A stretch of 64,000 nucleotides of DNA from Escherichia coli (lineage in GTDB: Bacteria > Pseudomonadota > Gammaproteobacteria > Enterobacterales > Enterobacteriaceae): the NCBI RefSeq assembly GCF_044647545.1, contig NZ_CP172818.1, one strand, 5' to 3'. Position 1 is the first letter of the stretch, and every line of letters begins with the position of its first letter. The notes under the pieces were generated by a model that saw only the letters and a list, made by a program, of their open reading frames with translations, ran no database searches and was not told the DNA's origin. A program made the position numbers and the translations under genes. This document shows, one piece after another, positions 6,427 through 63,393 of the stretch.

Positions 6427-6454
6427 CAGACAGATGTAAGTAATTATTACAGGA

Positions 6455-23916: not shown

Positions 23917-24624
23917 ATGGACATGGAGTCGCAAAAAATATTGTTTGCACTTTCCACTCCGATGGAAATACGCAATGAATGCTGTTTACCTTCGCATTCA
24001 TCCCCCAAAATGTATTTAGGTACACGCTTTTTTGACCTTTCTTCCTCCTGGGGAATTGATGACCGTGATGACCTGCTGCGCACAATTCACCGAATGATCG
24101 ATAACGGTCATGCCGCTCGGTTGGCAGGGCTTTATCACCGCTGGTTTCGTTATTCTCCGTGTGAATGGCGTGACTATCTTGCTGAACTAAATGAGCAAGG
24201 TCAGGCTTATGCGCAATTTGTCGCCAGCACCGCCGAATGCTGTGGCGAAGGGGGAATCAAAGCCTGGGATTATGTCCGGATGGGTTTTTTAAGCCGAATG
24301 GGCGTACTTAATAACTGGTTGAGTGAAGAAGAAAGCCTGTGGATCCAGTCGCGCATTCATCTACGGGCTCTACGTTATTATAGTAACTGGCAGCAATACT
24401 TTGCCGGTTATACCTTTGGTCGGCAATATTGGCAGTCTCCCGAGGATGATGATCTGCCTTTATTACGTGAATTCTTAGCGCGTAAAGAATACGACGATTC
24501 CGGCAATGATATGTTTTATCAATTATTTGCCAGTGACGATGCATATTACGCGACCTTACCCTGGCAACCACTGGCTGACTACCCCACATGCCCGGAAACG
24601 CTTAAGGATATGAGCGACCTATGA
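23917..24624 (+). CDS. ybeR: YbeR, 235 aa, DUF1266-like protein (family name from memory); paralogue of YbeU
   Basis: Start chosen at internal ATG so length matches the YbeU paralogue; shares [20 protein letters not shown] and ATLPWQPL...LKD(M/V)SDL with YbeU. Confidence 0.8.
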
Positions 24625-26713: not shown

Positions 26714-27421
26714 ATGAATAAGGAAGAACAATATCTTCTTTTTGCGCTTTCTACGCCCATGGAAATACTTAATCAGGGTTGCAAGCCCGCGCATGACTCG
26801 CCAAAAATGTATACCGGGATAAAAGAATTCGATCTCTCATCATCCTGGGGAATAAATAATCGTGATGATTTAATTCAGACTATTTATCAGATGACCGATG
26901 ATGGTCATGCCAATGATTTAGCTGGCTTATATCTGACATGGCATCGCTCTTCCCCTGAAGAGTGGAAAGCATTAAATGCTGGTGGCTCGGAGAGAGGGTT
27001 GATTTATACCCAATTCGTTGCCCAAACCGCTATGTGTTGTGGGGAAGGGGGAATCAAAGCCTGGGATTATGTGCGGATGGGTTTTTTATCACGGGTTGGT
27101 GTGCTCAACAAGTGGCTGACGGAAGACGAGAGTTTATGGCTGCAATCGCGCGTCTATATACGAGCACACCATTACTATCACAGCTGGATGCACTATTTTT
27201 CCGCCTATTCGTTAGGGCGTCTCTACTGGCAATCTTCTCAGTGCGAAGACAACGCTTCGCTACGCGAGGCGCTAACCCTGTACAAATACGATAGCGCCGG
27301 GAGTCGGATGTTCGAAGAGCTGGCAGCGGGAAGCGACCGTTTCTATGCCACGCTTCCCTGGCAGCCATTAACTGTCCAGCCTGAATGCCCGGTAACGCTT
27401 AAGGATGTGAGCGACCTATGA
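26714..27421 (+). CDS. ybeU: YbeU, 235 aa, DUF1266-like protein; paralogue of YbeR
   Basis: Collinear similarity to YbeR over the full length. Confidence 0.85.
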
Positions 27422-34044: not shown

Positions 34045-34953
34045 TTAGTTCAGTGCCTTGTCATTCGGTTCTTTGAACAGTGCTTTCATTTCGTCTGACA
34101 GTTCGAAATTCATGTTCAGGTTTTTCGGCGGAATTGGGTTTTTGAACCACTTATCAAACCATTTTTCCGCTTCACCGGAGGTCTGCACCTGAGCGATAGT
34201 GTCATCCATCAGCTTTTTGAACTGCGGATCGTCTTTACGCAACATGCAACCGTAGGCTTCCTGAGACTGCGGCTTGCCGACGATTTCCCAGTTGTCTGGT
34301 TTCTTCGCTTTCGCACGTTCACCGGCCAGCAGGGCATCATCCATCATAAAGGCAACGGCACGACCGCTTTCCAGGGTGCGGAAAGAGTCACCGTGATCTT
34401 TGGCGCTGATGATGCGCATGTTCATTTTTTGCTCTTCATTCAGTTTGTTGAGCAAAACTTCAGAGGTGGTGCCGGAAGTGACTACGACGGCTTTGTCTTT
34501 CAGATCGGCAAAATCTTTAATATCGCCGCCTTTTTTTGTCAGCAGGCGCGTACCGACCACGAAAATAGTGTCGGAGAAAGCCGCCTGTTTTTGGCGTTCG
34601 ACGTTGTTGGTGGTAGAACCGCATTCAAAATCGAAAGTGCCGTTTTGCAGCAGTGGAATACGGTTTTGTGAGGTGATCGGAATCAATTTCACCTGTAAGT
34701 CTGGTTTGTTGAGTTTCTTTTTCACTGCTTCAACAATGGCGTTGGAGTAATCCTGCGAGTAGCCCACCACTTTTTGCTGATTGTCGTAATAAGAGAAAGG
34801 TACTGAAGATTCACGGTGACCGACGACAATCACGCCGTTTTTGGCGATTTTGTCCAGCGTGCTGCCTGCTGCCGGGGCGGCGTCATCTGCCTGTGCCAGT
34901 CCTGCGGAAAGCGCCAGGGCCAGGATTGCTGTGGCAGGTTTACGTAATTGCAT
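34045..34953 (-). CDS. gltI: Glutamate/aspartate periplasmic binding protein GltI, about 302 aa
   Basis: Signal peptide plus solute-binding protein fold; start set at second ATG (MQLRKPATA). Confidence 0.9.
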   Translation of the reverse strand: MQLRKPATAILALALSAGLAQADDAAPAAGSTLDKIAKNGVIVVGHRESSVPFSYYDNQQKVVGYSQDYSNAIVEAVKKKLNKPDLQVKLIPITSQNRIPLLQNGTFDFECGSTTNNVERQKQAAFSDTIFVVGTRLLTKKGGDIKDFADLKDKAVVVTSGTTSEVLLNKLNEEQKMNMRIISAKDHGDSFRTLESGRAVAFMMDDALLAGERAKAKKPDNWEIVGKPQSQEAYGCMLRKDDPQFKKLMDDTIAQVQTSGEAEKWFDKWFKNPIPPKNLNMNFELSDEMKALFKEPNDKALN

Positions 34954-35050
34954 ATCCAACTCCTTTATCTTCTGCGTTAAAAACGCATGGATACCCGTTG
35001 TGAGTGTTTGTGTTGTTATCTCTGCGACTTTTTGTGCGGTTGTGTTTTGG

Positions 35051-35082
<32 letters not shown>

Positions 35083-35689
35083 TTAGGTAACATTTAGTTT
35101 GGATAAATGTAAAGGTATTGCTGTTTTATTGTTTGTTTTTGCGAGATGCGCCGCACCATTCCGAAGCAAAATTCTTAAACTGCACCTTTTTGGTGCTACC
35201 GCTGATTTGTGGTGGTGCAACCCGGTTGCGTCGCGGTTGATTTCATTGCTTACACAGTAAATAAAGCAACTTACATGCCAAAAAATACTTAGGGGTGCAT
35301 TAATTACGATTGTAATTTCAGTTTGAAAAAGTCATATTTCGGACAGTGTTAACTTTTCGGTGTGGGAATTTTGCCGGGATGATAACTACACACGGGAAAA
35401 TGTTTTTTACTAGTCTTTTCAAGGAAAAATCACTTTATGTCTGCATCTTCGGTTAAGCCGTTAAATGTTCAATTACCCGCAATAACCCTGATCCTTTTTG
35501 CGCTCTGTGTTGGGATATTTTGTTACCTCGCACAATGGATGAGTTACAAAAAAGTCAATAAATCCGCACTCATCCATCTCGGCGCTAACTTTCTCTCTCT
35601 CACGTTGTCGGGTAAACCCTGGCGTTTATTTAGCAGTGTCTTTTTACAGTATTTTTTCTCTTTTATAGATATATATTTTTGCACTCTGG

Positions 35690-36790
35690 TTAGGGGGGAG
35701 GGGGGGAAGGGAAAATGGGGAAAAGGGGATCCCTATTGTTTGCCTTTTTCTCTCGGGTTTGTGTGGTGAGCACATCGTCTTGTGTTATGCGCGAAAAAAA
35801 AGAGAAAAGATAGATAGGTGGGGGGGCCGGGGGAAAAAAGGAAAAAAAGGGGGGGCGGTAAGAAAAAAACACTTCTTTAGGGGGGAGAACACAATAAAAA
35901 ACAGCGGCGAGGTTTTTTCCTTTTTGGTGGGGTGGCGCTAACGTTGTGTTGCGGCCCGGGAAAAAGAGAAAAAAAAAGCCTCTTCAATGGCGGGGCCGTG
36001 GGTGGGGGGGGGGGTTGGGTGGGGGGGGGCCCGGTTAGGTGGGACAAAACCGTTTCGTAAGGAAGGGCGAGTTTTTTGTGGCTCTTCTTTTCTCCGGCGG
36101 GGTATTTCGGGTGTGCAGCAGCAGAATGATGAAAAATTTTTTTAAAATAGGGGAAAACCGCGTGAAAAGTTTTTTTCCCAGGAGAATAAACAAAAGGAGC
36201 GAAAAAAAAAACAACAATTTAGGGGGGAGGGCAAAGCCCCCACCGAAACATTATCCGCTCCGGTAAGTCGTGAGGAGGCCAGTGGTGATTTACTCGCTGA
36301 GATTGCCGATAACCATGATATGGCGATCAATCGGGATGGTAATACGTTATATGCCGCAAATGAAAACACGAACAGTATTTTTTTTTTCGACCTCGGACAA
36401 AAGAAAATCTCCCATACTTTTATACCGCCCATAGCAAAAAAAAAAAAACACAAAAATTGTGGGGTCTGTAAAAATAAGGGGGTAAGATGGCGGTGGTTAA
36501 GCCCGAAAAAAAGGTTTTTTTATCCACTTTTATTTAAAATGAATGCGTGATCGTTAATAAAGGGGCGGAGGGGGGGGATAATTCAGTCAATAACCACCTG
36601 CACACATCCTGACAGTTTTATCCTCTCGTGGAATGAAAAAAAAGCTGGGTGAATAATGCAACCAATAAAATGTATTTATTCATCTATTGATTTATTAACT
36701 TATAAGGAAGGAGATGCCGCCCGAAAAAAAAAAAACGGGGGGGGGAGGAGGGGAAAAAGACGCCCGTGTGATATTACTCTCCGCGGTAAA
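35690..36790. other. Low-complexity purine-rich block with long poly-G and poly-A runs; no coherent coding frame; probable artefact or degraded DNA
   Basis: Runs such as gggggggaggggggg, gtggggggggggggttgggtggggggggg, aaaaaaaaaaaac and gggggggggagg; every overlapping ORF translates to low-complexity G/K/F/P-rich peptides. Confidence 0.8.
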
Positions 36791-37423
36791 AAAACATTGT
36801 TGATACCGCTTGGATTGAGAGAAAGCATATTCGAATCAATAACATCACGAATCATAAAGTAGAATTTCCCACATGTGATGGGTGTGGTGTCGTTGTTGTG
36901 ATGGGAGTATGATAACGAAAAAATAATAGTATTTTTATCGATAATATCGAGGGTATACGAGTAAAAGTTTAAGGATAGAAAAAAAAGAAGCAAAGATCAA
37001 AAGGGAGTGGTGAAACCGTTATCTCTATTAGGTTGAGAGGCAGGAGTGTAAATAGTTGTGTTTTGGTCTGGATGGCAAAGGGATTGTAACCTTTTTTAAT
37101 ATAAAGCCGGGGAAAAGATTGGCGGTTTTTCTCCCCATAACTTTTATTCTTCTCTGTTTTTCAGCGGATGGTAGAAAGATATTTGTTATGGCGAAGAACG
37201 GGTTAATCCAAATGGACAGGACGCGCTCGCTTGATCCGCAGGCAATTATTCGGCATCCCCAATATGGTGATGTGGCTTGTATCCCTGAACCGTAAGAAAA
37301 AGGGGCATGATAATCACGCCCGAAGTAATGAGAAAGTACGTTTTGTTGATACCGGATGCGGTGTTAACGGTTTATTTAGCCTGCAAAAATGATGCAATTT
37401 TGCAGGCCAGCGCATCATTTACA

Positions 37424-38965
37424 TCAACGTTTACGTCGCTGACGCAGACTCATCAACACAGCGGCAAAACCAAACAGCGCCGTAAGCACCCACAGCGGCC
37501 AGTTGCCGGTACGTGCGTACGGTGTGAGTCCGGTAGTCGGCGTCACGTTAGTGGTCAACACTTCGCGGGTGAACTGCGGGATCATTGCCTGAATCTCACC
37601 CTGCGGGCCAATCACCGCCGTAATACCGTTGTTGGTGCTACGCAGCAATGGGCGCGCCAGCTCCAACGCACGCATTCGCGCCATCTGGAAGTGCTGCCAT
37701 GGACCAATAGACTTACCAAACCACGCATCGTTGGAGATAGTCAGCAGATAGTCGGTATCCGGGCGGAAGTTATCGCGCACTTGCTCGCCGAGAATGATCT
37801 CGTAGCAAATAGCCGCAGTAAGCTCAATACCATTTACCGACAGCGGCGGCTGGATATATGGCCCACGGCTGAACGACGACATCGGCAGATCAAAGAACGG
37901 TGCTAACGGACGCAGAATCGACTCCAGCGGGACAAACTCGCCAAACGGCACCAGATGGTTTTTGTTATAGCGATCGGCTGATTCATAGCTGTACGGTGCG
38001 CCTTTACCCAGTGTGATGATGGTGTTGTAGGTATCGTAGCGGTTCTGCTTATTGAGACGCGCGTCGACAATCCCGGTGACCAGCGAGCTACCTTTATCGC
38101 GCAACTCACCGTCCAGAGCTTTGAGGAACGGTTGCTGATTAATTTCCAGATCGGTTATCGCCGACTCCGGCCAGATAATCAACGATGATTTGCCCATCAG
38201 CGGTGCCGTTGCGTTGTAGTAAATCTTCAGCGTATTAAGAAGCTGGCCTTCGTCCCATTTCAGCGATTGCGGAATATCGCCCTGAACCATCGAAACCTGA
38301 ATGGTTTTCTCCGGTTGCGGGGTAAACCACTGGATGTAACGCAGCGGGAAGGGTAGGGCAAACAGCACGACGGCCACCACCAGCGGACGCCAGTTGCGTT
38401 TGACTAACGCCAGTGCCAGCAGGCCGCTAACCATCATAAGCAGGAAGTTAATGGCTTCCACGCCCATTAGCGGTGCCAGCCCTTTTAACGGGCCATCAAT
38501 CTGGCTATAGCCGAACTGTAACCACGGGAAGCCAGTCAGCACCCAACCGCGCAGAAACTCGGTCACTTGCCAGAGAGCAGGAGCGGCAATCGCCACGCGC
38601 AGCCAGGTGGTTTTCGGCCACAGACGCGACAGCACGCCAGCAAACAGTCCGGTATACAGCGACAAATACGCCGCCAGCAGTACCACCAGGAAGATGTTAA
38701 CCGGGCCAGGCATTCCGCCAAAGGTCGCGATGCTGACATAGACCCAGTTAATACCGCTGCCAAAGAGACCAAATCCCCAGCAAAAGCCAATAGCGGCAGA
38801 CTGGAGTGGACGGCGGTTAAAGGTCAGCGCCTGAAGCCCCATCAGCGAAATAATCGCCGCAGGCCAGACATCGTAAGGAGAGAAGGCCAGCGTTCCGCAG
38901 GCACCGAATAATAACGCCAGCAGCAGGCGAATGCGCTGGCGTTCAATTAATGAGGCAAAAGCCAT
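37424..38965 (-). CDS. lnt: Apolipoprotein N-acyltransferase Lnt (CutE), about 512 aa
   Basis: N-terminal multi-TM region and C-terminal nitrilase-like domain; recognised as Lnt. Confidence 0.9.
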
Positions 38966-45295: not shown

Positions 45296-45586
45296 CAAGG
45301 AAAATTGCTCGAAAGTGACTGTTTGGTTAGGTTGCGAACAGCGTGGCGCTATATTCGTCAATTATTGTTTACTTTGTGTTTTTTCCCCACCCTACAGCCA
45401 TTCTTTTGTCATACAGGATGAAATTCGGAATTCAACAATAGTGGTGGGAAATTAATCTATGAAATACTCCCTTCAACAACACAGGATTACCTCATTTCTA
45501 CCACACATTTATTAGGAATACTATCTTTTATACATTATTACTTAAACCTCCAACCAAACCGAAAAAAATATTTTTTAAAATTAAAA

Positions 45587-45645
<59 letters not shown>

Positions 45646-45744
45646 GAAGCGTGGCCTACAGTGATGAATTGTCAAACAGTGATGTGGCAAACCCGGAACA
45701 TTTCCTTACTGCATATCAGAATCAACAAGCACCTCAATAACTGA

Positions 45745-45781
45745 AACAGCCCCGGATTTTACCGGGGCTGTTTCGCATTTC
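45745..45781 (-). terminator. Probable intrinsic terminator downstream of asnB
   Basis: cagccccgg-atttta-ccggggctg hairpin adjacent to the asnB stop; weak T-run. Confidence 0.5.
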
Positions 45782-47446
45782 TTACTTGTACGCCGACTGG
45801 TGAACACCAACCGCACGACCAGATGGATCGTCCATTTTTTTGAACGCTTCATCCCATTCGATCGCTTTAGCGGAAGAACACGCGACGGAAGGACCGCCCG
45901 GCACGCACTCAGCGGCGCTCGGAAGCGGGAACAGTTCTTCAAAGATCTCGCGGTACAGATACGCTTCTTTGGACGTCGGCGTGTTGTACGGGAAGCGGAA
46001 GCGGGCAGTTTCCAGCTGTTGATCAGAAACCTGCTGCGCCGCCACTTCTTTCAGGGTGTCGATCCAACTGTAACCGACGCCATCGGAGAACTGCTCTTTC
46101 TGCCGCCAGGCCACGCTTGCGGGCAGATACGCTTCAAAACATTCACGCAGGATGTGTTTTTCCATTTTGCCGTTACCGCACATTTTATCCTGTGGGTTAA
46201 TGCGCATCGCCACGTCGAGGAATTTTTTGTCGAGGAACGGAACGCGTGCTTCCACGCCCCAGGCGGACATCGCTTTGTTGGCACGCGCGCAGTCATACAT
46301 ATGCAGGGCCAGCAGTTTACGCACCGTCTCTTCATGCAGTTCTTTGGCATTCGGCGCTTTGTGGAAGTATAGATAACCGCCAAACACTTCATCAGATCCT
46401 TCACCGGACAGCACCATTTTAATGCCCATCGCCTTGATCTTACGCGACATTAAATACATCGGTGTTGAAGCGCGAATAGTGGTCACATCATAGGTTTCGA
46501 TGTGGTAAATCACGTCGCGGATGGCGTCCAGACCTTCCTGTACAGTGAAGTGAATTTCATGATGCACAGTGCCCAGATGGTTTGCCACTTCCTGGGCTGC
46601 CTTCAGATCCGGTGAACCCGGCAGACCTACAGCAAAGGAGTGCAGCTGCGGCCACCAGGCTTCAGAGCGTTCCTGATCTTCCACGCGACGGGCGGCGTAT
46701 TTCTTGGTGATAGCGGAAATGATTGAGGAATCCAGGCCACCAGATAGCAGCACACCGTAAGGCACATCAGACATCAGATGGCTTTTAACGGAATCTTCCA
46801 GTGCCTGACGCAGCTCGTTTTTGTCGGTCACGTTATCTTTCACCGCATCGTAGTCGAACCAGTCGCGATGATAATAAGAACGGATTTCGCCGTCCTGACT
46901 CCACAAATAGCTCCCCGCCGGAAACTCTTTAATCGTGCGGCAAACTGGCACGAGGGCTTTCATTTCTGAGGCCACATACAGCTGACCGTGTTCGTCATAG
47001 CCCATATACAGTGGGATGATCCCCAGATGGTCGCGACCAATCAGATATGCATCTTTTTCGCTGTCGTACAGGGCAAAGGCAAACATGCCCTGCAAGTCGT
47101 CGAGAAATTCCGGCCCTTTTTCCTGATACAGCGCGAGGATCACTTCACAGTCAGACCCGGTCTGGAATTGGTAACGATCGCCATATTCAGCGCGCAATGC
47201 CTGGTGGTTGTAGATTTCACCGTTTACTGCCAGCACATGAGTTTTTTGTTGGTTGTAGAGAGGTTGCGCCCCCGCGTTAACGTCAACAATTGACAGACGT
47301 TCGTGGGCGAGAATGGCGTTATCGCTGGCATAAATACCGGACCAGTCCGGGCCACGATGACGCATCAGGCGTGACAGCTCGAGTGCTTTCTTACGCAGCT
47401 CAACTGCGTCTGTTTTGATATCGAATACGCCAAAAATTGAACACAT
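45782..47446 (-). CDS. asnB: Asparagine synthetase B (glutamine-hydrolysing) AsnB, 554 aa
   Basis: N-terminal MCSIFGVFD nucleophile cysteine, PP-loop SGGLDSS; ORF track starts 21 codons upstream of the likely true start. Confidence 0.95.
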   Translation of the reverse strand: MCSIFGVFDIKTDAVELRKKALELSRLMRHRGPDWSGIYASDNAILAHERLSIVDVNAGAQPLYNQQKTHVLAVNGEIYNHQALRAEYGDRYQFQTGSDCEVILALYQEKGPEFLDDLQGMFAFALYDSEKDAYLIGRDHLGIIPLYMGYDEHGQLYVASEMKALVPVCRTIKEFPAGSYLWSQDGEIRSYYHRDWFDYDAVKDNVTDKNELRQALEDSVKSHLMSDVPYGVLLSGGLDSSIISAITKKYAARRVEDQERSEAWWPQLHSFAVGLPGSPDLKAAQEVANHLGTVHHEIHFTVQEGLDAIRDVIYHIETYDVTTIRASTPMYLMSRKIKAMGIKMVLSGEGSDEVFGGYLYFHKAPNAKELHEETVRKLLALHMYDCARANKAMSAWGVEARVPFLDKKFLDVAMRINPQDKMCGNGKMEKHILRECFEAYLPASVAWRQKEQFSDGVGYSWIDTLKEVAAQQVSDQQLETARFRFPYNTPTSKEAYLYREIFEELFPLPSAAECVPGGPSVACSSAKAIEWDEAFKKMDDPSGRAVGVHQSAYK

Positions 47447-47659
47447 AACCTTCTCCGTTAACCTGGTATTTGTTGCTTGTTGTGTTTGCTTGTTTAAAAA
47501 ATGCCGCAAAGCAGCACGGTGCGCAAGCGATTTGGCGGTGGAAAAATAAAAAACGTAATGGCGATTGCTGATTTGTGAAAAAGGATAGGGTGTGGTGGCG
47601 TATTTATTGATGGATCGATAATTTTTGACGGGTTTTATTGAATAGGATGATTTTAATGA

Positions 47660-47698
47660 TGGCTAAAATAAGAAACCACGCCCTGAGGCGTGGTTGCT
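47660..47698 (-). terminator. Intrinsic terminator after umpH
   Basis: aaccacgccctgaggcgtggtt hairpin followed on the minus strand by a T-rich run. Confidence 0.65.
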
Positions 47699-47700
47699 AT

Positions 47701-48453
47701 TCAGATAACGTCGATTTCAGCGACCGACGGGTAAATCCAGCTTGGGCGGAACGGCATACTGTCGATATCGTCGAGCGATGAAACACCAGAAAGCACCAGA
47801 ATCGTCTCCAGACCCGCCTGGAAGCCCGCCAGAATATCGGTACGCAGGTTATCGCCGACAATCACCGTTTCTTCCGAATGCGCCTGCATTTTGTTTAATG
47901 CCGCGCGGATGATCCACGGACTCGGTTTACCAACATAGAACGGTTTACGCCCGGAGATTTTTTCGATCCCTGCACACAACGCGCCACAGGCCGGATAAAA
48001 ACCGCGCCCGTGGGTGTCCGGGTTGGTGGCGATAAAGCGTGCACCGTTAGCGACGAAATAGGCTGCTTTATGCATCATGTCCCAGTTGTAGGAACGCGTT
48101 TCACCAACAATCACGAAATCAGGGTTCACATCGGTAATAGTGAAACCGGCTTTGTACAGTTCATGAATCAGTGCGCCTTCGCCCACCACATACGCTTTCT
48201 TGCCTTCCTGGCGACGCAGGAAATCGGCGGTCGCCATTGCAGAGGTATAAAACACGCTGTCAGGTACATCGACACCGGCAGTGGCAAAGCGGTTCGCCAG
48301 ATCTTGCCCGGTCTGCGAAGGATAGTTGGTCAGCAACACCAGCGGCAGGCCTTTATCCATAATCCCGTGCAAAAATTCCGCTGCACCCGGTACGGCGACG
48401 TTATCGTGCATCAGCACGCCGTCGATATCGCAAATTACATTTTTAATGGTCAT
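47701..48453 (-). CDS. umpH: UMP phosphatase UmpH (NagD), 250 aa HAD-family
   Basis: HAD motif I DIDGVL near the N-terminus; last gene of the nag cluster. Confidence 0.9.
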   Translation of the reverse strand: MTIKNVICDIDGVLMHDNVAVPGAAEFLHGIMDKGLPLVLLTNYPSQTGQDLANRFATAGVDVPDSVFYTSAMATADFLRRQEGKKAYVVGEGALIHELYKAGFTITDVNPDFVIVGETRSYNWDMMHKAAYFVANGARFIATNPDTHGRGFYPACGALCAGIEKISGRKPFYVGKPSPWIIRAALNKMQAHSEETVIVGDNLRTDILAGFQAGLETILVLSGVSSLDDIDSMPFRPSWIYPSVAEIDVI

Positions 48454-48500
48454 GGACTACCCAGAATATTGACAACAATAAGCGCCACTATAAAAGCACA

Positions 48501-49721
48501 TTAATTTTCCAGCAAATGCTGGAGCAAAATACCGTTGAGCATGGCGCGTTTTACCAGCGCAAAAGCGCCGATTGCCGAGCGGTGATCCAGCTCAGAACGT
48601 ACCACCGGCAGATTAGTGCGAAACGCCTTCAGCGCCTGGGTATTAATGCAGCTTTCAATAGCAGGGAGCAGCACTTTATCGGCTTCGGTGATTTCACCAG
48701 CAATAACAATTTTTTGCGGGTTAAATAAGTTGATAGCAATGGCGATGGTTTTACCCAGATGACGACCGACATATTCAATCACTTCCGACGCCAGGCTATC
48801 GCCCTTGTTCGCGGCTTTGCAGATAGTTTTGATGGTGCAGTCGTCCAGCGGCACGCGGCTCTGGTAGCCCTGCTTTAACAGATTCAACACCCGTTGTTCA
48901 ATGGCAGCGTTGGCGGCGATAGTTTCCAGGCAGCCAAAGTTGCCGCAGTGGCAGCGTTCACCCAGCGGTTCGACCTGAATATGGCCAATTTCACCGACGT
49001 TGCCGTTGCGCCCGATAAAAATTCGCCCGTTAGAGATAATCCCGGCCCCGGTTCCACGATGGACACGCACCAGAATGGAGTCTTCGCAATCCTGACTTGC
49101 ACCGAAGTAGTGCTCTGCCAGCGCCAGACTGCGGATATCGTGGCCGACAAAACAGGTCACTTTAAAACGTTCTTCCAGTGCTTCTACCAGCCCCCAGTTT
49201 TCTACCTGAATATGCGGCATGTAATGAATTTTGCCGCTGTCCGGGTCAACAAGTCCTGGCAGGATCACGGAAATGGCGATCAGCTCGCGCAGTTTGCGCT
49301 GGTAGCTATCAATAAACTGAGCAATGGCGTTAAGCAGGGCATGTTCCAGCGTCTGCTGGGTACGTTCCGGCAGCGGGTAATGTTCTTCTGCCAGCACTTT
49401 GCTACTAAGATCAAACAGAGTGATGGTGGCGTCGTGACGACCAAGCCGTACGCCGATTGCGTGGAAATTGCGGGTTTCGGTGACGATAGAGATAGCGCGG
49501 CGGCCCCCGGTGGAGGCCTGCTGATCAACTTCTTTGATCAGCCCGCGTTCGATAAGCTGACGCGTAATTTTGGTTACGCTGGCGGGGGCAAGCTGACTTT
49601 GCTCGGCAATCTGAATCCGCGAGATTGGTCCGTACTGGTCAATCAGGCGATAAACCGCCGCGCTGTTAAGCTGTTTTACGAGATCAACATTACCTATCTG
49701 AGCTTGTCCGCCTGGTGTCAT
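48501..49721 (-). CDS. nagC: N-acetylglucosamine repressor NagC, 406 aa ROK family
   Basis: N-terminal HTH plus ROK sugar-kinase-like domain with CxCGxxGC zinc motif (CHCGNFGC). Confidence 0.95.
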   Translation of the reverse strand: MTPGGQAQIGNVDLVKQLNSAAVYRLIDQYGPISRIQIAEQSQLAPASVTKITRQLIERGLIKEVDQQASTGGRRAISIVTETRNFHAIGVRLGRHDATITLFDLSSKVLAEEHYPLPERTQQTLEHALLNAIAQFIDSYQRKLRELIAISVILPGLVDPDSGKIHYMPHIQVENWGLVEALEERFKVTCFVGHDIRSLALAEHYFGASQDCEDSILVRVHRGTGAGIISNGRIFIGRNGNVGEIGHIQVEPLGERCHCGNFGCLETIAANAAIEQRVLNLLKQGYQSRVPLDDCTIKTICKAANKGDSLASEVIEYVGRHLGKTIAIAINLFNPQKIVIAGEITEADKVLLPAIESCINTQALKAFRTNLPVVRSELDHRSAIGAFALVKRAMLNGILLQHLLEN

Positions 49722-49729
49722 ACTTTCTC

Positions 49730-51738
<2,009 letters not shown>

Positions 51739-52070
51739 TATTCACCTCAATAAGTAAAATGTAAGCCGTTGGCGGATTAGGCATCTTTAAGCGTAACCTG
51801 GATTTGCGCAGACAGGCGTCAATCCGACCTGATTTTTTGAATGATAAAATAAGTTTTCTGGTTTAGCCAGTAAAAGGGAGTGATGATAACGATATTTGGT
51901 GACAAAACTCACAAAAGACACGCGTTTAATTTGCGATACGAATTAAATTTTCACACACTCTGTAGCAGATGATCTAACAATCTGATTACAGAACATCGGC
52001 AGTACAATTTGCAGCAAAATAAAAATACGGCTTTAAATGAGCCAAATAGGGTTCTCGTAGGGGGAATAAG
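51739..52070. promoter_or_regulatory. Divergent nagB/nagE control region (NagC operators and CRP site expected)
   Basis: 332-bp AT-rich intergenic region between divergent nagB and nagE; individual operators not mapped by eye. Confidence 0.55.
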
Positions 52071-54017
52071 ATGAATATTTTAGGTTTTTTCCAGCGACTC
52101 GGTAGGGCGTTACAGCTCCCTATCGCGGTGCTGCCGGTGGCGGCGCTGTTGCTGCGATTCGGTCAGCCAGATTTACTTAACGTTGCGTTTATTGCCCAGG
52201 CGGGCGGTGCGATTTTTGATAACCTCGCATTAATCTTCGCCATCGGTGTGGCATCCAGCTGGTCGAAAGACAGCGCAGGTGCGGCGGCACTGGCGGGTGC
52301 GGTAGGTTACTTTGTGTTAACCAAAGCGATGGTTACCATCAACCCAGAAATTAACATGGGTGTACTGGCGGGTATCATTACCGGTCTGGTTGGTGGCGCA
52401 GCTTATAACCGTTGGTCCGATATTAAACTGCCGGACTTCCTGAGTTTCTTCGGCGGCAAACGCTTTGTGCCGATTGCCACCGGCTTCTTCTGCCTGGTGC
52501 TGGCGGCCATTTTTGGTTACGTCTGGCCGCCGGTACAGCACGCTATCCATGCAGGCGGCGAGTGGATCGTTTCTGCGGGCGCGCTGGGTTCCGGTATCTT
52601 TGGTTTCATCAACCGTCTGCTGATCCCAACCGGTCTGCATCAGGTGCTGAACACCATCGCCTGGTTCCAGATTGGTGAATTCACCAACGCGGCGGGTACG
52701 GTTTTCCACGGTGATATCAACCGCTTCTATGCCGGTGACGGCACCGCGGGGATGTTCATGTCCGGCTTCTTCCCGATCATGATGTTCGGTCTGCCGGGTG
52801 CGGCGCTGGCGATGTACTTCGCAGCACCGAAAGAGCGCCGTCCGATGGTTGGCGGGATGTTGCTTTCTGTTGCTGTTACTGCGTTCCTGACCGGTGTGAC
52901 TGAGCCGCTGGAATTCCTGTTCATGTTCCTTGCACCGCTGCTGTACCTCCTGCACGCACTGCTGACCGGTATCAGCCTGTTTGTGGCAACGTTGCTGGGT
53001 ATCCATGCCGGCTTCTCTTTCTCTGCGGGGGCTATCGACTACGCGTTGATGTATAACCTGCCGGCCGCCAGCCAGAACGTCTGGATGCTGCTGGTGATGG
53101 GGGTTGTCTTCTTCGCTATCTACTTCGTGGTGTTCAGTTTGGTTATCCGCATGTTCAACCTGAAAACGCCGGGTCGTGAAGATAAAGAAGACGAGATCGT
53201 TACTGAAGAGGCTAACAGCAATACTGAAGAAGGTCTCAATCAACTGGCAACCAACTATATTGCTGCGGTTGGCGGCACTGACAACCTGAAAGCAATTGAC
53301 GCCTGTATCACCCGTCTGCGCCTTACAGTGGCTGACTCTGCCCGCGTTAACGATACGATGTGTAAACGTCTGGGTGCTTCTGGGGTAGTGAAACTGAACA
53401 AACAGACTATTCAGGTGATTGTTGGCGCGAAAGCAGAATCCATCGGCGATGCGATGAAGAAAGTCGTTGCCCGTGGTCCGGTAGCCGCTGCGTCAGCTGA
53501 AACTGCGCCTGCAACTGCCGCGCCTGTAGCAAAACCGCAGGCTGTACCAAACGCGGTGTCTGTCGCGGAGCTGGTATCGCCGATTACCGGTGATGTTGTG
53601 GCACTGGATCAGGTTCCTGACGAAGCATTCGCCAGCAAAGCGGTGGGTGACGGTGTGGCGGTGAAACCGACAGATAAAATCGTCGTATCACCAGCCGCAG
53701 GGACTATCGTGAAAATCTTCAACACCAACCACGCATTCTGCCTGGAAACTGAAAAAGGCGCGGAGATTGTCGTCCATATGGGTATCGACACCGTAGCGCT
53801 GGAAGGTAAAGGCTTTAAACGTCTGGTGGAAGAGGGCGCGCAAGTAAGCGCAGGGCAACCGATTCTGGAAATGGATCTGGATTATCTGAACGAAAACGCC
53901 CGCTCGATGATTAGCCCGGTGGTTTGCAGCAATATCGACGATTTCAGCGGCTTGATCATTAAAGCTCAGGGCCATGTCGTGGCGGGTCAAACGCCGCTGT
54001 ATGAAATCAAAAAGTAA
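52071..54017 (+). CDS. nagE: PTS N-acetylglucosamine-specific EIICBA component NagE, 648 aa
   Basis: Polytopic EIIC, EIIB cysteine motif (ACITRLR), EIIA domain; Ala/Pro-rich linkers. Confidence 0.95.
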   Translation: MNILGFFQRLGRALQLPIAVLPVAALLLRFGQPDLLNVAFIAQAGGAIFDNLALIFAIGVASSWSKDSAGAAALAGAVGYFVLTKAMVTINPEINMGVLAGIITGLVGGAAYNRWSDIKLPDFLSFFGGKRFVPIATGFFCLVLAAIFGYVWPPVQHAIHAGGEWIVSAGALGSGIFGFINRLLIPTGLHQVLNTIAWFQIGEFTNAAGTVFHGDINRFYAGDGTAGMFMSGFFPIMMFGLPGAALAMYFAAPKERRPMVGGMLLSVAVTAFLTGVTEPLEFLFMFLAPLLYLLHALLTGISLFVATLLGIHAGFSFSAGAIDYALMYNLPAASQNVWMLLVMGVVFFAIYFVVFSLVIRMFNLKTPGREDKEDEIVTEEANSNTEEGLNQLATNYIAAVGGTDNLKAIDACITRLRLTVADSARVNDTMCKRLGASGVVKLNKQTIQVIVGAKAESIGDAMKKVVARGPVAAASAETAPATAAPVAKPQAVPNAVSVAELVSPITGDVVALDQVPDEAFASKAVGDGVAVKPTDKIVVSPAAGTIVKIFNTNHAFCLETEKGAEIVVHMGIDTVALEGKGFKRLVEEGAQVSAGQPILEMDLDYLNENARSMISPVVCSNIDDFSGLIIKAQGHVVAGQTPLYEIKK

Positions 54018-54024
54018 TCTGCTT

Positions 54025-54058
54025 TATGCCTGATGCGACGCTTGAGCGTCGCATCCAA
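54025..54058. repeat. REP-like palindrome after nagE
   Basis: gcctgatgcgacgcttgagcgtcgcatcc. Confidence 0.5.
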
Positions 54059-54219
54059 CAATGACAAGCGGTGGAGATCTTCTCTGTCGCTTTTTTTTTC
54101 ATCAATCATCCCCATAATCTCAGTGAGATTTTCGATTTTCACTAACTAACAGTTGTCAGCCTGTCCCGCTTATAAGATCATACGCCGTTATACGTTGTTT
54201 ACGCTTTGAGGAATCCACG

Positions 54220-55884
54220 ATGAGTGAGGCAGAAGCCCGCCCGACTAACTTTATTCGTCAGATCATCGATGAAGATCTGGCCAGTGGTAAGCACACCACA
54301 GTACACACCCGTTTCCCGCCGGAGCCGAATGGCTATCTGCATATTGGCCATGCGAAATCTATCTGCCTGAACTTCGGGATCGCCCAGGACTATAAAGGCC
54401 AGTGCAACCTGCGTTTCGACGACACTAACCCGGTAAAAGAAGATATCGAGTATGTTGAGTCGATCAAAAACGACGTTGAGTGGTTAGGTTTTCACTGGTC
54501 TGGTAACGTCCGTTACTCCTCCGATTATTTTGATCAGCTCCACGCCTATGCGATCGAACTGATCAATAAAGGCCTGGCGTACGTTGATGAACTGACACCG
54601 GAACAGATCCGCGAATACCGCGGCACCCTGACGCAGCCGGGTAAAAACAGCCCGTACCGCGACCGCAGCGTTGAAGAGAACCTGGCGCTGTTCGAGAAAA
54701 TGCGTACCGGCGGTTTTGAAGAAGGTAAAGCCTGCCTGCGTGCGAAGATCGACATGGCTTCGCCGTTTATCGTGATGCGCGATCCGGTGCTGTACCGCAT
54801 TAAGTTTGCTGAACACCACCAGACTGGCAACAAGTGGTGCATCTACCCGATGTACGACTTTACCCACTGCATCAGCGATGCGCTGGAAGGTATTACGCAC
54901 TCTCTGTGTACGCTTGAGTTCCAGGACAACCGTCGCCTGTACGACTGGGTGCTGGACAACATCACCATTCCTGTTCACCCGCGCCAGTACGAATTCTCGC
55001 GCCTGAATCTGGAATACACTGTGATGTCCAAGCGTAAGCTGAACCTGCTGGTGACCGACAAGCACGTTGAAGGCTGGGATGACCCGCGTATGCCGACCAT
55101 TTCCGGTCTGCGTCGTCGTGGTTACACTGCGGCTTCTATTCGTGAGTTCTGCAAACGCATCGGCGTGACCAAGCAGGACAACACCATTGAGATGGCGTCG
55201 CTGGAATCCTGCATCCGTGAAGATCTCAACGAAAACGCCCCGCGCGCAATGGCGGTTATCGATCCGGTGAAACTGGTTATCGAAAACTATCAGGGCGAAG
55301 GCGAAATGGTTACCATGCCGAACCATCCGAACAAACCGGAAATGGGGAGCCGTCAGGTGCCGTTTAGCGGTGAGATTTGGATCGATCGCGCCGATTTCCG
55401 CGAAGAAGCTAACAAGCAGTACAAACGTCTGGTGCTGGGTAAAGAAGTGCGTCTGCGTAATGCTTACGTCATTAAGGCAGAACGCGTGGAGAAAGATGCC
55501 GAAGGCAATATCACCACCATCTTCTGTACTTATGACGCCGACACCTTAAGCAAAGATCCGGCAGATGGTCGTAAAGTCAAAGGCGTTATTCACTGGGTGA
55601 GCGCGGCACATGCGCTGCCGGTTGAAATCCGTTTGTATGACCGTCTGTTCAGCGTGCCGAACCCTGGTGCTGCGGATGATTTCCTGTCGGTGATTAACCC
55701 GGAATCGCTGGTGATCAAACAGGGCTTTGCTGAACCGTCGCTGAAAGATGCGGTAGCGGGTAAAGCATTCCAGTTTGAGCGTGAAGGTTACTTCTGTCTC
55801 GACAGCCGCCATTCTACGGCGGAAAAACCGGTATTTAACCGCACCGTTGGGTTGCGTGATACCTGGGCGAAAGTAGGCGAGTAA
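54220..55884 (+). CDS. glnS: Glutaminyl-tRNA synthetase GlnS, 554 aa
   Basis: Class I HIGH (HIGHAKS) and MSK (VMSKRK) motifs. Confidence 0.95.
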
Positions 55885-55892
55885 GTTTACGT

Positions 55893-55925
55893 TGTCGGAT
55901 AGAGCGTTCACGCCGCATCCGGCAA
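55893..55925. repeat. REP-like palindrome after glnS
   Basis: gcgttcacgccgcatccggc. Confidence 0.5.
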
Positions 55926-55943
55926 AAAATAGCAAACAAACCC

Positions 55944-55972
55944 AAACGCCGCGCTCCGCGGCGTTTTTTTTC
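55944..55972 (+). terminator. Rho-independent terminator of glnS
   Basis: aacgccgcg-ctc-cgcggcgtt followed by TTTTTTTT. Confidence 0.75.
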
Positions 55973-56324
55973 TGCTTTTCTTCGCGAATTAATTCCGCTT
56001 CGTAATTTATTCATAAAGCAAATTTAAAATTACAAATCATAATTAAATAAAATGTAACCGCTTTCATCTTGCTGGAAATTCACGCATTTTTTCTTCAACA
56101 CACCTTTCAACTACAACTTAAGCCTTGTAACAAAAATCATCAAAATATGTGCGGTTGCTCATGTTCTTACATTCTGGTTACAGAAAGAGATTGATAATTC
56201 GCGTCGCGAAAAATAGTCTGTTCCTGTAGTCAGCGAGACTTTTCTCAACGCTACTTTTTTAATTTTTATTTTTTTCGCTGTTCACCTTTGGTGCAGCAAT
56301 TTATACGTCAAAGAGGATTAACCC

Positions 56325-57731
56325 ATGCGTGCGTTTAGTGGCAAACGTAGTACGCTGGCGCTGGCTATCGCCGGTGTTACAGCAATGTCGGGCTTTGTGG
56401 CAATGCCAGAGGCTCGCGCCGAAGGATTCTTCGAAGATTCAACCTTAACCGGCGGTATCTATTACTGGCAGCGTGAACGTGACCGTAAAGATGTTACCGA
56501 CGGCGACAAATATAAAACCAACCTTTCTCACTCCACCTGGAACGCTAATCTCGATTTTCAGTCTGGCTATGCCGCTGATATGTTCGGTCTGGATATTGCC
56601 GCGTTTACAGCGATTGAAATGGCAGAAAACGGCGACAGCTCTCACCCGAACGAAATCGCGTTTTCAAAAAGTAATAAAGCCTATGACGAAGACTGGTCCG
56701 GCGATAAAAGCGGTATAAGCCTGTATAAAGCAGCGGCCAAATTTAAATACGGTCCGGTATGGGCGAGGGCAGGTTATATTCAGCCAACCGGTCAGACGCT
56801 GTTAGCGCCACACTGGAGCTTTATGCCGGGTACTTATCAGGGGGCGGAGGCCGGGGCGAATTTTGATTACGGCGATGCTGGTGCGTTGAGTTTCTCCTAC
56901 ATGTGGACCAACGAATACAAAGCACCGTGGCATCTGGAAATGGATGAGTTTTATCAGAACGATAAAACCACCAAAGTTGATTATCTGCACTCCATCGGTG
57001 CGAAGTACGACTTCAAAAATAACTTTGTACTGGAAGCAGCGTTTGGTCAGGCGGAAGGGTATATCGATCAATACTTTGCCAAAGCCAGCTACAAATTTGA
57101 TATCGCCGGTAGCCCGTTAACCACCAGCTACCAGTTCTACGGTACGCGCGATAAAGTTGACGATCGCAGCGTCAACGATCTTTATGACGGCACCGCCTGG
57201 CTGCAGGCGTTGACCTTTGGTTACCGGGCGGCTGACGTAGTGGATTTGCGCCTCGAAGGTACCTGGGTTAAGGCTGACGGTCAGCAGGGATACTTCCTGC
57301 AACGTATGACTCCAACCTACGCTTCCTCCAACGGCCGCCTGGATATCTGGTGGGATAACCGTTCCGACTTCAACGCTAACGGCGAAAAAGCGGTCTTCTT
57401 CGGTGCGATGTATGACCTGAAAAACTGGAATCTTCCAGGCTTCGCCATCGGCGCTTCCTACGTTTACGCATGGGATGCTAAACCCGCTACCTGGCAGAGC
57501 AATCCGGATGCGTACTACGACAAAAACCGGACTATTGAAGAGTCTGCCTACAGCCTGGATGCGGTCTACACCATTCAGGACGGTCGCGCCAAAGGCACGA
57601 TGTTCAAACTGCACTTCACCGAATACGACAACCACTCCGACATCCCAAGCTGGGGCGGTGGTTACGGCAACATCTTCCAGGATGAGCGTGACGTGAAATT
57701 TATGGTAATCGCACCATTCACCATCTTCTGA
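56325..57731 (+). CDS. chiP: Chitoporin ChiP (YbfM), 468 aa outer-membrane porin
   Basis: Signal peptide and C-terminal aromatic residue (...PFTIF); long AT-rich leader upstream, as expected for the ChiX-regulated mRNA. Confidence 0.9.
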
Positions 57732-57780
57732 TGCCCGACGCGGCAGGTTTTGTGCCTGCCGCACGTTTGAGGAATTTGCT

Positions 57781-58107
57781 ATGAAAAAACTGATTCTCAT
57801 CGCCATAATGGCATCGGGGCTGGTAGCTTGTGCGCAATCAACCGCGCCACAGGAAGACAGTCGTCTGAAAGAGGCATACAGCGCCTGTATCAACACCGCA
57901 CAAGGTTCGCCAGAAAAAATTGAAGCCTGCCAGAGCGTGTTAAACGTGCTGAAGAAAGAGAAACAACATCAGCAGTTTGCCGACCAGGAAAGTGTCCGCG
58001 TACTGGATTATCAGCAGTGTCTGCGCGCAACGCAAACCGGAAATGATCAGGCGGTGAAAGCCGATTGTGATAAGGTCTGGCAGGAAATTCGCAGTAATAA
58101 CAAATAA
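57781..58107 (+). CDS. chiQ: Lipoprotein ChiQ (YbfN), 108 aa
   Basis: Lipobox (LVAC); downstream of chiP in the same orientation. Confidence 0.85.
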   Translation: MKKLILIAIMASGLVACAQSTAPQEDSRLKEAYSACINTAQGSPEKIEACQSVLNVLKKEKQHQQFADQESVRVLDYQQCLRATQTGNDQAVKADCDKVWQEIRSNNK

Positions 58108-58147
58108 GTGAGAGCTGTAACTCTCGCTTTTCTTATTTCCCTTGCAT

Positions 58148-58180
58148 AAAAAAGCCAACCCGCAGGTTGGCTTTTCTCGT
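58148..58180. terminator. Bidirectional terminator between convergent chiQ and fur
   Basis: aaaaaagccaacc-cgca-ggttggcttttct hairpin flanked by A and T runs. Confidence 0.65.
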
Positions 58181-58190
58181 TCAGGCTGGC

Positions 58191-58637
58191 TTATTTGCCT
58201 TCGTGCGCGTGCTCATCTTCGCGGCAATCGCCTTCGGCACAGTGACCGTAAAGATAGAGACTGTGGTTAGTCAGGCGAATGCCATGTTTTGCGGCAATTT
58301 CACGCTGACGCGCTTCGATGGAATCATCACTAAATTCGATTACCTTGCCGCAGTCGAGGCAGATCAGGTGATCGTGGTGATGTTGCTGTGTCAGTTCAAA
58401 TACGGATTTACCGCCTTCAAAATTGTGGCGGGTGACGATACCAGCGTCGTCAAACTGGTTCAGTACGCGATATACCGTAGCCAGACCAATTTCTTCACCC
58501 ATATCGATCAGACGTTTGTATAAATCTTCCGCACTGACGTGATGGTTGTCCGGCTCCTGAAGAACTTCCAGGATTTTTAAACGAGGAAGCGTTACTTTCA
58601 GGCCAGCTTTCTTTAGGGCGGTATTGTTATCAGTCAT
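58191..58637 (-). CDS. fur: Ferric uptake regulator Fur, 148 aa
   Basis: Recognised as Fur (MTDNNTALKKAGLKVTLPRLKILEVL...); C-terminal His/Cys metal sites. Confidence 0.95.
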   Translation of the reverse strand: MTDNNTALKKAGLKVTLPRLKILEVLQEPDNHHVSAEDLYKRLIDMGEEIGLATVYRVLNQFDDAGIVTRHNFEGGKSVFELTQQHHHDHLICLDCGKVIEFSDDSIEARQREIAAKHGIRLTNHSLYLYGHCAEGDCREDEHAHEGK

Positions 58638-58925
58638 GCGGAATCTGTCCTGTTACTAAGCGGTTCACTTCATTAGAAGAAGTGACAGAATTTGCTCTTG
58701 AGATAATGCGTATCATTATAGAATTGCCACGCCTAAATGAAAACCACAAGTCCCTGGCAAATATTGTTAATAAAAACGTGGCACAGCTTACATTTACAAC
58801 GGCAAGGCCACTTGAACACCGGGACATTGTACAGGTACAACAGCAAAAGTTACAAATTTGTAGCAATTATTTTGATTGGCATTATCTATTAATACGGCGT
58901 AGACATGAGTCTACGCCGCATCACA

Positions 58926-59456
58926 TCAGGCATTGAGAATTTCGTCGAGATGCAGCTCTTCAGAAATTTGTTTAACCCATTTTTCTACACGTTCAGCGGT
59001 CAGTTCCGGCTGACGATCTTCGTCGATAGCCAGACCGACAAAGTGGTCATCATCAGCCAGACCTTTTGACGCTTCGAAGTGGTAGCCCGCAGTTGGCCAG
59101 TGACCAACGATAGTTGCGCCGCGCGGTTCAATGATGTCGCGGATGGTGCCCAATGCATCGCAGAAGTATTCTGCGTAATCTTCCTGGTCGCCACAACCAA
59201 ACAGCGCAACCAGTTTACCATTAAAATCAATCTCTTCGAGAGTCGGGAAGAAGTCATCCCAGTCACACTGCGCTTCGCCGTAATACCAGGTTGGGATGCC
59301 CAGCAGCAGAATGTCATAAGCTTCCAGATCTTCTTTGCTGCTTTTTGCAATGTCATGGACATCGGCAACGTCTTTACCAAGCTGTTTTTGAATCATTTTT
59401 GCGATATTTTCGGTATTACCGGTGTCGCTGCCGAAAAAGATGCCAGTGATAGCCAT
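58926..59456 (-). CDS. fldA: Flavodoxin 1 FldA, 176 aa
   Basis: FMN-binding loop SDTGNTE near the N-terminus ([16 protein letters not shown]); ORF track extends upstream of the true start. Confidence 0.9.
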
Positions 59457-59595
59457 GAGTGAAATAACCTCTTGAAACTTATTGAAATGGGGGTGGAAAA
59501 TTGCCCACGGATAAAGGCAATCATAGCAGAACAGGCAGTCTTGCGGAATCAGCAAACGAGCAGGACTGCACACTGTGCTACATGAAAGTGGAAAT

Positions 59596-59889
59596 TTAAA
59601 CGATGCCCTGACTACGCAGCGCCGCCAGTTGCTGCATTAACATCTCTTCGATCAGTTCGCTACGGCTCATATTGCGCGACTCCGCCAGCTCGTTCAGTGC
59701 CTCGACAGCTTCCGCGTTCAGCTTCAGTTCGACACGCTTAAGGCCACGTACTTTGTCGCGTTTTAGTTGGTTACGTTTATTAATACGCAGCTGTTCATCG
59801 CGCGAAAGCGGATTAGTTTTCGGTCGTCCCGGTCGACGCTCGTGCGCGAACAGATCTAATGTCGTACGGTCCGTTTGTTCTTTGGCCAT
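59596..59889 (-). CDS. ybfE: YbfE, about 97 aa, small basic protein (LexA-regulated in E. coli)
   Basis: Start set at [14 protein letters not shown]; Arg/Lys-rich, CopG/RHH-like C-terminus. Confidence 0.75.
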
Positions 59890-60028
59890 GATCTTGGTGA
59901 CTTCGGGGGAAACAATCAGCCAGGCCTCTGCCCGGATGGATAGCGCGCCATAATACATCAGCGTGAGGAGTCACGCCAACGTCCACGCGCGGAAAGCGAC
60001 GCGGACGCTGGGTTTTTAATCAGTTGCG

Positions 60029-60793
60029 TTAATCATTGAGATAGCGACGGATAGCGCGTAATACCGCATCCGGTTTTTCAGCATGGACCCAGTGACCCGC
60101 GCCTGCAATCACATGCGCCCGAGCCTGTGGAAATTGTGCCAGTAAATCATCACGGTACTGCTCGCTAACATACGGAGAATTGCCGCCAGGGATAAACAGG
60201 GTAGGATGATCCCATGCCGGGATTTTCTCCCAACCCACAATATGCGGATACTGATCCCACAATACTGGCACGTTAAAGCGCCACTCCCCGTCAACAAAAG
60301 ATTTCAACAGAAACTGAATCACCCCTTCTTCATTAAGATGCTGGCGCATTATTGCCGCTGCTTGCTGGCGTGTTTGTGCGTCTGATTCACTGACTGCGTT
60401 GATGGCCGCGAAAATCTCATCATGACGGCGTACGTGATAGTCGACCGGCGCAATATCAATCGCCACCAGCTTGTCAATGCGATCGGGGGCTAGTGCAGTA
60501 AGAGCCATTACCGCTTTACCGCCCATTGAGTGACCGATAAATGTTGCTTTGTCGATCTGCTGTGCATCCAGGGTATCAACAAGATCCTGCGCCATCGCCG
60601 GGTAATTCATTACCGGATCTCTCGGTGAAAGACCGTGGTTACGCATATCAACCTGGATGATATTGTGATCGTTTACCAGATCGCGAGCCAGTACGCCAAG
60701 GTTGTCGAGGCTGCCAAACAGACCATGGACAAGAACGATGGGAGAATTATTGTGCTGGTTTTGTGCAGTTTGCGCGCGGATATTCAATTTCAT
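60029..60793 (-). CDS. ybfF: Esterase YbfF, 254 aa alpha/beta hydrolase
   Basis: GxSxG nucleophile elbow (GHSMGG); recognised as YbfF. Confidence 0.9.
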   Translation of the reverse strand: MKLNIRAQTAQNQHNNSPIVLVHGLFGSLDNLGVLARDLVNDHNIIQVDMRNHGLSPRDPVMNYPAMAQDLVDTLDAQQIDKATFIGHSMGGKAVMALTALAPDRIDKLVAIDIAPVDYHVRRHDEIFAAINAVSESDAQTRQQAAAIMRQHLNEEGVIQFLLKSFVDGEWRFNVPVLWDQYPHIVGWEKIPAWDHPTLFIPGGNSPYVSEQYRDDLLAQFPQARAHVIAGAGHWVHAEKPDAVLRAIRRYLND

Positions 60794-60977
60794 GGCAAAG
60801 TTCTTTTTTTCGCGTTGTCGGGTTAGGGTATTATGTTGACCATTGTGCCACAGGGCTGCAACAAATAAGGTTTATTCCGAGTTTTTCTGCAAGCCAGGCT
60901 TGACGCTATCCGCTGCCGGGATTTATTCATATACTCCTGGCGACTTGTATTCAGCTAAGACACTGCACTGGATTAAG

Positions 60978-61523: not shown

Positions 61524-61548
61524 AACGTTGCAGACAAAGGACAAAGCA

Positions 61549-63189: not shown

Positions 63190-63204
63190 ACACATTTAAT
63201 AAGA

Positions 63205-63235
63205 AAAAGGGCGGTCAGAAGATCGCCCTTTTTTA
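63205..63235 (+). terminator. Rho-independent terminator of pgm
   Basis: aaagggcg-gtcagaagat-cgccctttttt. Confidence 0.7.
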
Positions 63236-63345: not shown

Positions 63346-63393
63346 AACAACGAGCACTTTGCCAACAAACTGAATAGCTCAAGGGAATTCAAA

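Follow-up and report, generated by a model that had tools for sequence, protein, structure and literature searches.

The homopolymer-rich block between gltI and lnt in an Escherichia coli chromosome record is very probably an assembly artefact lying over an ordinary rhomboid protease gene

Introduction

The window, which is the whole 64,000-nt stretch of Escherichia coli DNA analysed here, holds between gltI and lnt a block of sequence dominated by long runs of single bases. An earlier note on this DNA had placed the block at positions 35,690–36,790, described it as homopolymer-rich, strand-asymmetric, purine-rich and without a coherent reading frame, and favoured a failure of base calling or assembly over a biological element. 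The question raised by this locus is whether the strain carries such DNA at all and, if it does not, what stands there instead and how the record came to be damaged. On the basis of sequence comparisons, we believe with a probability of about 0.9 that the block is a technical artefact of the record's assembly, which would have been guided by K-12, and that the strain has no such DNA. Almost certainly, the strain carries a normal, intact gltI–rhomboid protease–lnt interval like that of its clonal relatives.

Composition and extent of the block

The anomaly is real and far beyond chance, as its run counts lie outside those of shuffled sequence and of the other tiles of the window, and its purine content and GC skew outside those of the other tiles. 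Positions 35,690–36,790 contain 27 homopolymer runs of at least 6 nt, 11 of at least 8 nt, and a longest run of 13 nt. Composition-matched shuffles of the same stretch gave 1.38 ± 1.13 runs of at least 6 nt (maximum 6), and the other 1.1-kb tiles in the window (n = 105) had a mean of 1.41 (maximum 7). The purine fraction is 0.614, compared to 0.455–0.549 in the remaining tiles, and the GC skew is +0.31, compared to −0.11 to +0.15, in agreement with the compositional description given earlier. The absence of a coherent reading frame was also borne out, with 19–34 stops per frame across the former coding sequence and a longest open stretch of 134 codons. No RNA family was found in the damaged stretches (Rfam). 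Two further bins of the window, 3,001–4,000 and 6,001–7,000, are dense in homopolymers, with 8 and 5 runs of at least 6 nt, respectively. These runs are common to the clonal reference described below, because positions 1–35,019 differ from it only at 2,048 and 11,419, and the two bins give a natural upper bound on run density.

While the anomaly does occupy positions 35,690–36,790, its span proved to be larger: heavy damage covers 35,340–37,170, with traces to 37,420, and a separate damaged junction containing a run of 28 A's (A28) lies at 35,020–35,082. The longest uninterrupted purine tracts are only 24–30 nt (24–27 nt in the block; 30 and 49 nt at the A-runs described below), so the block does not form a single long polypurine tract. 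Runs of A, T, and G have each expanded within it, and those of A and T are as common as those of G.

Comparison with a clonal relative

The earlier note had proposed aligning the gltI–lnt region to K-12 and other genomes, and this alignment revealed a garbled rhomboid gene with damage at the breakpoints relative to K-12. For comparison, we used E. coli FDAARGOS_497 (NZ_CP033850.1) as the reference, to which the window is a near-perfect match over about 62 kb. The 3 kb on either side of the gltI–lnt gap are 100% identical to it, positions 1–35,019 differ by 2 SNPs, positions 45,651–64,000 differ by one 1-nt indel, and between 37,144 and 45,485 the differences are confined to the edges of the damaged patches. 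The two SNPs, at 2,048 and 11,419, are isolated, are the only ones in 35 kb, and both match the K-12 allele; they may be ancestral alleles or uncorrected template bases. Elsewhere in this flank, a 54-nt segment found at 24,238–24,291 and 27,035–27,088 (94% identity) is common to the paralogous pairs ybeR-djlB and ybeU-djlC. The features of the gltI–lnt region are as follows (positions in the window).

34045–34953, minus strand: gltI, intact left flank, 100% identical to NZ_CP033850.1
35020–35082: damaged junction with four single-base deletions at 35,020–35,038 and then A28 (35,051–35,078), which is absent from the reference
35083–35228: clean 146-nt K-12-homologous stretch from the IS5D site to the next breakpoint, 100% identical to the reference and 91.8% to K-12
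35229–37429: segment with no K-12 counterpart, the garbled block, 2,201 nt (intact reference 2,224 nt)
35340–36260: first error hill, up to 48% mismatched columns in a 40-nt error profile
35437–37295, plus strand: wreck of the rhomboid-family protease gene, from the reference coding sequence mapped onto the window
36260–36370: nearly clean island with about 3% error, halfway along the K-12-absent segment to within about 15 nt
36380–37170: second error hill, up to 56% mismatched columns in the 40-nt profile, with an abrupt end
37170–37429: near-clean right margin with residual C losses at 37,296, 37,322–37,326, 37,376 and 37,420
37424–38965, minus strand: lnt, intact right flank, identical to the reference

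In the reference, the gltI–lnt interval (3,064,779–3,067,241) encodes an intact rhomboid-family intramembrane serine protease of 625 aa (WP_022645354.1; 1,878 bp, 3,065,232–3,067,109), with a Pfam Rhomboid domain (PF01694) at residues 59–201 (E = 1.4e-28) and a C-terminal beta-propeller. The gap had seemed larger than expected for K-12, but at about 2.47 kb in the window it is of normal size for strains with this gene, the reference having 2,463 nt. A megablast search with the garbled gap, run on 5,426 complete E. coli genomes, gave a syntenic interval of near-equal length in about 1,071 of them at about 84% identity, annotated in the matching genomes as a rhomboid family intramembrane serine protease. 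The best match to the garbled version in this set is 84.2%, and no independent assembly among the 5,426 contains it, in a comparison that carries its own positive control. Of the same genomes, 3,231, including BL21, have the intact interval at 93.7–100% identity, 86 of them at 99% or more. About 60% of the complete genomes thus have the rhomboid gene interval, which is deleted in K-12. A literature search returned no description of a rhomboid-plus-beta-propeller gene at gltI–lnt.

It had been suggested that the block, if real, would be an extraordinary polypurine/polypyrimidine tract capable of non-B DNA structure. Although 21 overlapping G4 motif starts were counted in the garbled block, no purine or pyrimidine tract of at least 15 nt and no G4 motif occur in the true (reference) sequence, and the non-B reading falls for this reason. 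A natural H-DNA or G-quadruplex tract is accordingly absent from this locus.

Damage profile of the rhomboid gene

Because the block aligns in register with the reference throughout, it is a degraded copy of the real 1,878-bp gene. It carries about 440 substitutions and about 70 indel bases relative to the reference, and the identity of the window copy to the intact gene is 84% overall and 45–75% locally. Position, orientation and length are the same as in the intact gltI–rhomboid–lnt interval of non-K-12 E. coli, and the flanks are identical. The window copy is nearly identical to the intact coding sequence over its initial 230 nt and final 125 nt, yet it has roughly 433 substitutions and 67 indel bases in the coding sequence as a whole and no open frame. 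The alternative of filler sequence can be set aside, since what stands in the record is an in-register degraded version of a real gene-bearing segment of 2.2 kb.

The errors are not spread evenly, and form two hills. Positions 35,300–37,170 hold 438 substitutions plus indels, and mismatches per 100 nt run 2, 3, 7, 15, 30, 38, 36, 26, 30, 13, and 4, and continue with 23, 27, 25, 30, 25, 39, 47, 18, and 0. Inside the K-12-absent segment there are clean margins of 140 nt on the left and about 260 nt on the right, and the resets are abrupt. No K-12 homology that might anchor the island at 36,260–36,370 was found in 66 kb of K-12 or in the 154-nt remnant at the K-12 breakpoint.

The changes are blind to coding. 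The 433 substitutions mapped to the coding sequence fall almost evenly on the three codon positions (153/140/140) and are 25.6% synonymous compared to 23.8% expected at random; 11 are nonsense changes, and a further 24 bases are inserted and 43 deleted. The ORF from the native start ends after 110 codons, leaving no uninterrupted ORF for PF01694, and the garbled 110-aa product has no exact match in the protein collection. Substitutions tend to copy a neighbor: in 303 of 438 (69%) the new base is an adjacent true base, compared to 194.5 ± 9.9 in shuffles, a count to which ±1-nt register slips scored by the aligner may contribute part of the signal. Runs of at least 5 nt rise from 12 in the true sequence to 52 in the garbled copy, and the 27 runs of at least 6 nt in the garbled 1.1 kb compare to just 1 in the true sequence. 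Composition shifts from 21.6% to 15.6% C and from 24.3% to 30.6% A. At the leading edge (35,340–35,660), each of the 17 substitutions replaces a true G or C, with A or T as the new base in 16 cases. The error rate correlates weakly with true GC content (rho 0.41, p = 0.05). A low-pass mechanism, in which each base is replaced by a local majority, was also tried; the majority filter predicted the garbled bases at 0.66 compared to an identity of 0.67 with the true sequence itself, with a likelihood peak at a blur of about 1 nt, and it forms no part of the mechanism proposed below.

These results bear on whether the DNA might be genuine, that is, a hypermutated or decayed pseudogene or a divergent recombinant allele that is rich in homopolymers and prone to non-B structure. 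The sequence does stand in the record, the locus is accessory DNA, and the 21 G4 motif starts and purine tracts of 24–30 nt would suit such a view. Descent, however, cannot produce 25–55% divergence inside the block next to flanks that differ at no more than 2 sites in 35 kb, and a recombinant allele would have kept an open frame, while here all frames are riddled with stops and the codon-position profile is flat; we reject both readings of biological divergence on these grounds. The garbled version is moreover absent from a genome set in which the intact one is common, and the same damage recurs at an unrelated locus and at an IS5 site that is private to K-12 (both described below). A genuine hypermutated, homopolymer-rich rhomboid relic, potentially able to form G4 and triplex structures within a chromosome that is otherwise clonal, is therefore so improbable that we give it practically no weight. 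If the DNA were real, it would imply a new and extremely focused mutagenic process that had struck another accessory locus as well as the K-12 IS5 site. As a biological feature, the garbled block is not real.

The composition of the damage also speaks to the sequencing chemistry. The long G and A homopolymers resemble the poly-G artefacts of two-colour and the poly-A artefacts of four-colour Illumina instruments, and two-colour poly-G had been proposed as an explanation. Unlike in such artefacts, T runs are frequent in the window, and at the damage edges true G, instead of being over-called, disappears among the first bases. With a length of 500–900 nt, the gradients also exceed the read length, and their onset is at K-12 breakpoints. 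An origin in SOLiD colour space was considered and rejected by reasoning, as uncompensated colour errors would not give an in-register identity of 55–70%.

Coincidence with the structure of K-12 MG1655

Alignments to K-12 MG1655 were made for the window as well as for the intact reference. Two further features of the window enter here.

45469–45651: second damaged patch, 426 nt reduced to 183 nt and ending in A49-T-A8; absent from K-12, between tRNA-Met and asnB
47643–47674: further structural difference, about 170 nt in K-12 and 31 nt here, correct save that an A-run has lost 1 nt at 47,664

The damage in the window begins and ends at places where the structure of this strain departs from that of K-12. 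Breakpoints at 35,044 and 35,083 flank the site of IS5D, where the A28 run is located; breakpoints at 35,228 and 37,430 bound the 2.2-kb K-12-absent segment that is the garbled block; and breakpoints at 45,468 and 45,652 bound a 426-nt K-12-absent segment, which is the second damaged patch. All three structural differences of at least 426 nt are thus damaged. Smaller indels relative to K-12 are rendered correctly: about 20 measure 1–4 nt, and single ones measure 11 nt, about 130 nt and about 170 nt. Over the last 18 kb, the deletion at 47,664, inside the last of these events, alone distinguishes the window from the reference, and apart from the defects at K-12 structural differences, the only other departures from the reference are the two SNPs. 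Where the rhomboid gene is deleted, K-12 has a 154-nt sequence of its own (689,192–689,345), in which no similarity to the 2.2-kb segment could be detected. At 1,386 positions the flanks depart from K-12 in a strain-specific way and match the clonal reference, and the sequence data must therefore have come from the strain itself.

The presence of IS5 between gltI and lnt in K-12 MG1655, which had been mentioned in the earlier note, was confirmed by the alignment, with IS5D (1.2 kb) situated there. No IS5 sequence, transposase ORF or terminal inverted repeats occur in the window, and K-12 IS5D has no counterpart in it, again as had been stated. The A28 run lies in the same intergenic region as IS5D and starts within a few nucleotides of its target site. 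The GGAA preceding the run could echo an IS5 terminus, but it equally corresponds to the strain's own GGTAA with dropped bases. A paper on the genomic contexts of IS5 reportedly mentions gltI and lnt. Since the breakpoints coincide with the damage and IS5D belongs to the K-12 record and not to the strain, we conclude that the damage tracks the structure of K-12. DNA that is absent from K-12 is also accessory DNA, and biology might in principle account for part of the coincidence, but the occurrence of A28 at an insertion point private to K-12 speaks strongly against this.

The A-runs themselves are informative. A28 and the bases before it can be derived by deletions alone from about 146 nt of the true sequence downstream, and beyond the first 40 nt this ghost keeps 25 of 25 A's and none of 81 other bases; the true sequence behind it then recurs intact directly afterwards, at 35,079–35,228. 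The second patch, which shows that the rest of the window is not clean as had been believed, covers a segment encoding the hypothetical protein WP_000943487.1 and has its A49 run at 45,588. It too derives from the true sequence by deletions alone, keeping 112 of 122 A's and 8 of 137 G's. Loss of G starts at the first base past the K-12 breakpoint and consists of pure deletions, and C and T fade along the patch until A alone is left. In both patches G and C are lost before T, and T before A. They differ in that bases are replaced in the first and deleted in the second. The A-runs hold about as many A's as the true sequence that they replace and, being deletion-only subsequences from which the other three bases have been lost, they are a residue of real sequence and not filler.

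This retention of true bases is also relevant to a synthetic origin, according to which the non-K-12 parts of a real genome were overwritten with simulated, model-generated or lossily reconstructed sequence. The collapse into repeats of one symbol and into A alone does resemble the degenerate output of a sequence model or an encoding that defaults to A, and the damage is tied to the structure of a reference and to nothing physical in the strain. Against this, the garble stays in register at 45–75% identity over 2.2 kb, and the second patch preserves nearly every true A, from which it follows that the generating process had real sequence data as its input. We regard a synthetic origin as very improbable.

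A K-12-guided assembly as the proposed cause

Three lines of evidence carry the reading of the block as an artefact: the 35-kb and 18-kb flanks have 0–2 differences from the reference compared to 25–55% mismatch inside the block, the changes are indifferent to codon position and their synonymous fraction is like that of random change, and the version in the record is private to it among the genomes searched. Together with the coincidence with K-12, they bear out the preference for a failure of base calling or assembly over a biological element. The use of K-12 MG1655 as a template or scaffold of the record is our inference from this coincidence. In the mechanism that we propose, the record would have been built on, or guided by, the structure of E. 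coli K-12 MG1655. Where the strain is collinear with K-12, the consensus would come out near-perfect and true to the strain, including about 1,400 SNPs and every indel no longer than about 170 nt. The consensus step may then have failed to align the data to the template at the three large structural differences and produced degraded sequence there, in which G and C would be lost first and then T, with A surviving. Lost bases would either be filled with a copy of a neighbor, giving the in-register runs of the reported block, or be dropped outright, giving the A-runs. The loss of G in the second patch from the very first base past the breakpoint leads us to favor alignment-dependent software over a pure decay of signal. 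This explanation does not account for the clean island in the middle of the segment or for replacement in the first patch as opposed to deletion in the second.

Reference-guided assembly usually produces artefacts of another kind, namely a missing insertion, retained reference sequence or Ns. The window is similar to such cases of reference bias in that it is perfect where it is collinear with the template and fails at large structural differences, according to the size of the event. It is unlike the usual outcome in that the insertion is present at about its full length yet garbled, with a base-specific order of loss. We know of no pipeline or tool with this exact error pattern, and a literature search for this kind of artefact found nothing relevant.

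The damage might instead have arisen at the level of the instrument, if the gaps of a K-12-scaffolded assembly had been closed with single untrimmed low-quality reads, such as the Sanger tails of PCR products, in which peak resolution is lost and neighboring bases bleed together. In-register, neighbor-copying errors that rise gradually over about 500–900 nt are on the scale of a read tail, the length of the segment is nearly kept (2,201 compared to 2,224 nt), and damage at structural differences from K-12 is what gap closure in such an assembly predicts. The immediate onset of G loss in the second patch, by pure deletion, is difficult to reconcile with a fading read. The right margin, the island in mid-segment and the shape of the second hill are likewise a poor fit to converging forward and reverse reads, and a de novo contig would have had no reason to break at the IS5D site of K-12. 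The lineage, with relatives labelled ST648, may also point to a recent assembly from after the Sanger era. We consider this origin unlikely and prefer a failure in a K-12-guided consensus step.

Implications

If K-12 did serve as the template, each sizeable island of non-K-12 DNA in this record would be damaged in the same way, and the record would be unfit for calling pangenome, virulence or resistance genes. Records of this kind could be flagged automatically by the combination seen here, of perfect collinear DNA with garble at the breakpoints relative to a reference and A-runs at insertions found only in that reference. For the biology of the strain, the import of the block is nil, as an ordinary copy of the gene is almost certainly what the strain carries. 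What the record does hide, behind nonsense ORFs, is an intact, widespread and uncharacterised gene that joins a rhomboid protease to a beta-propeller.
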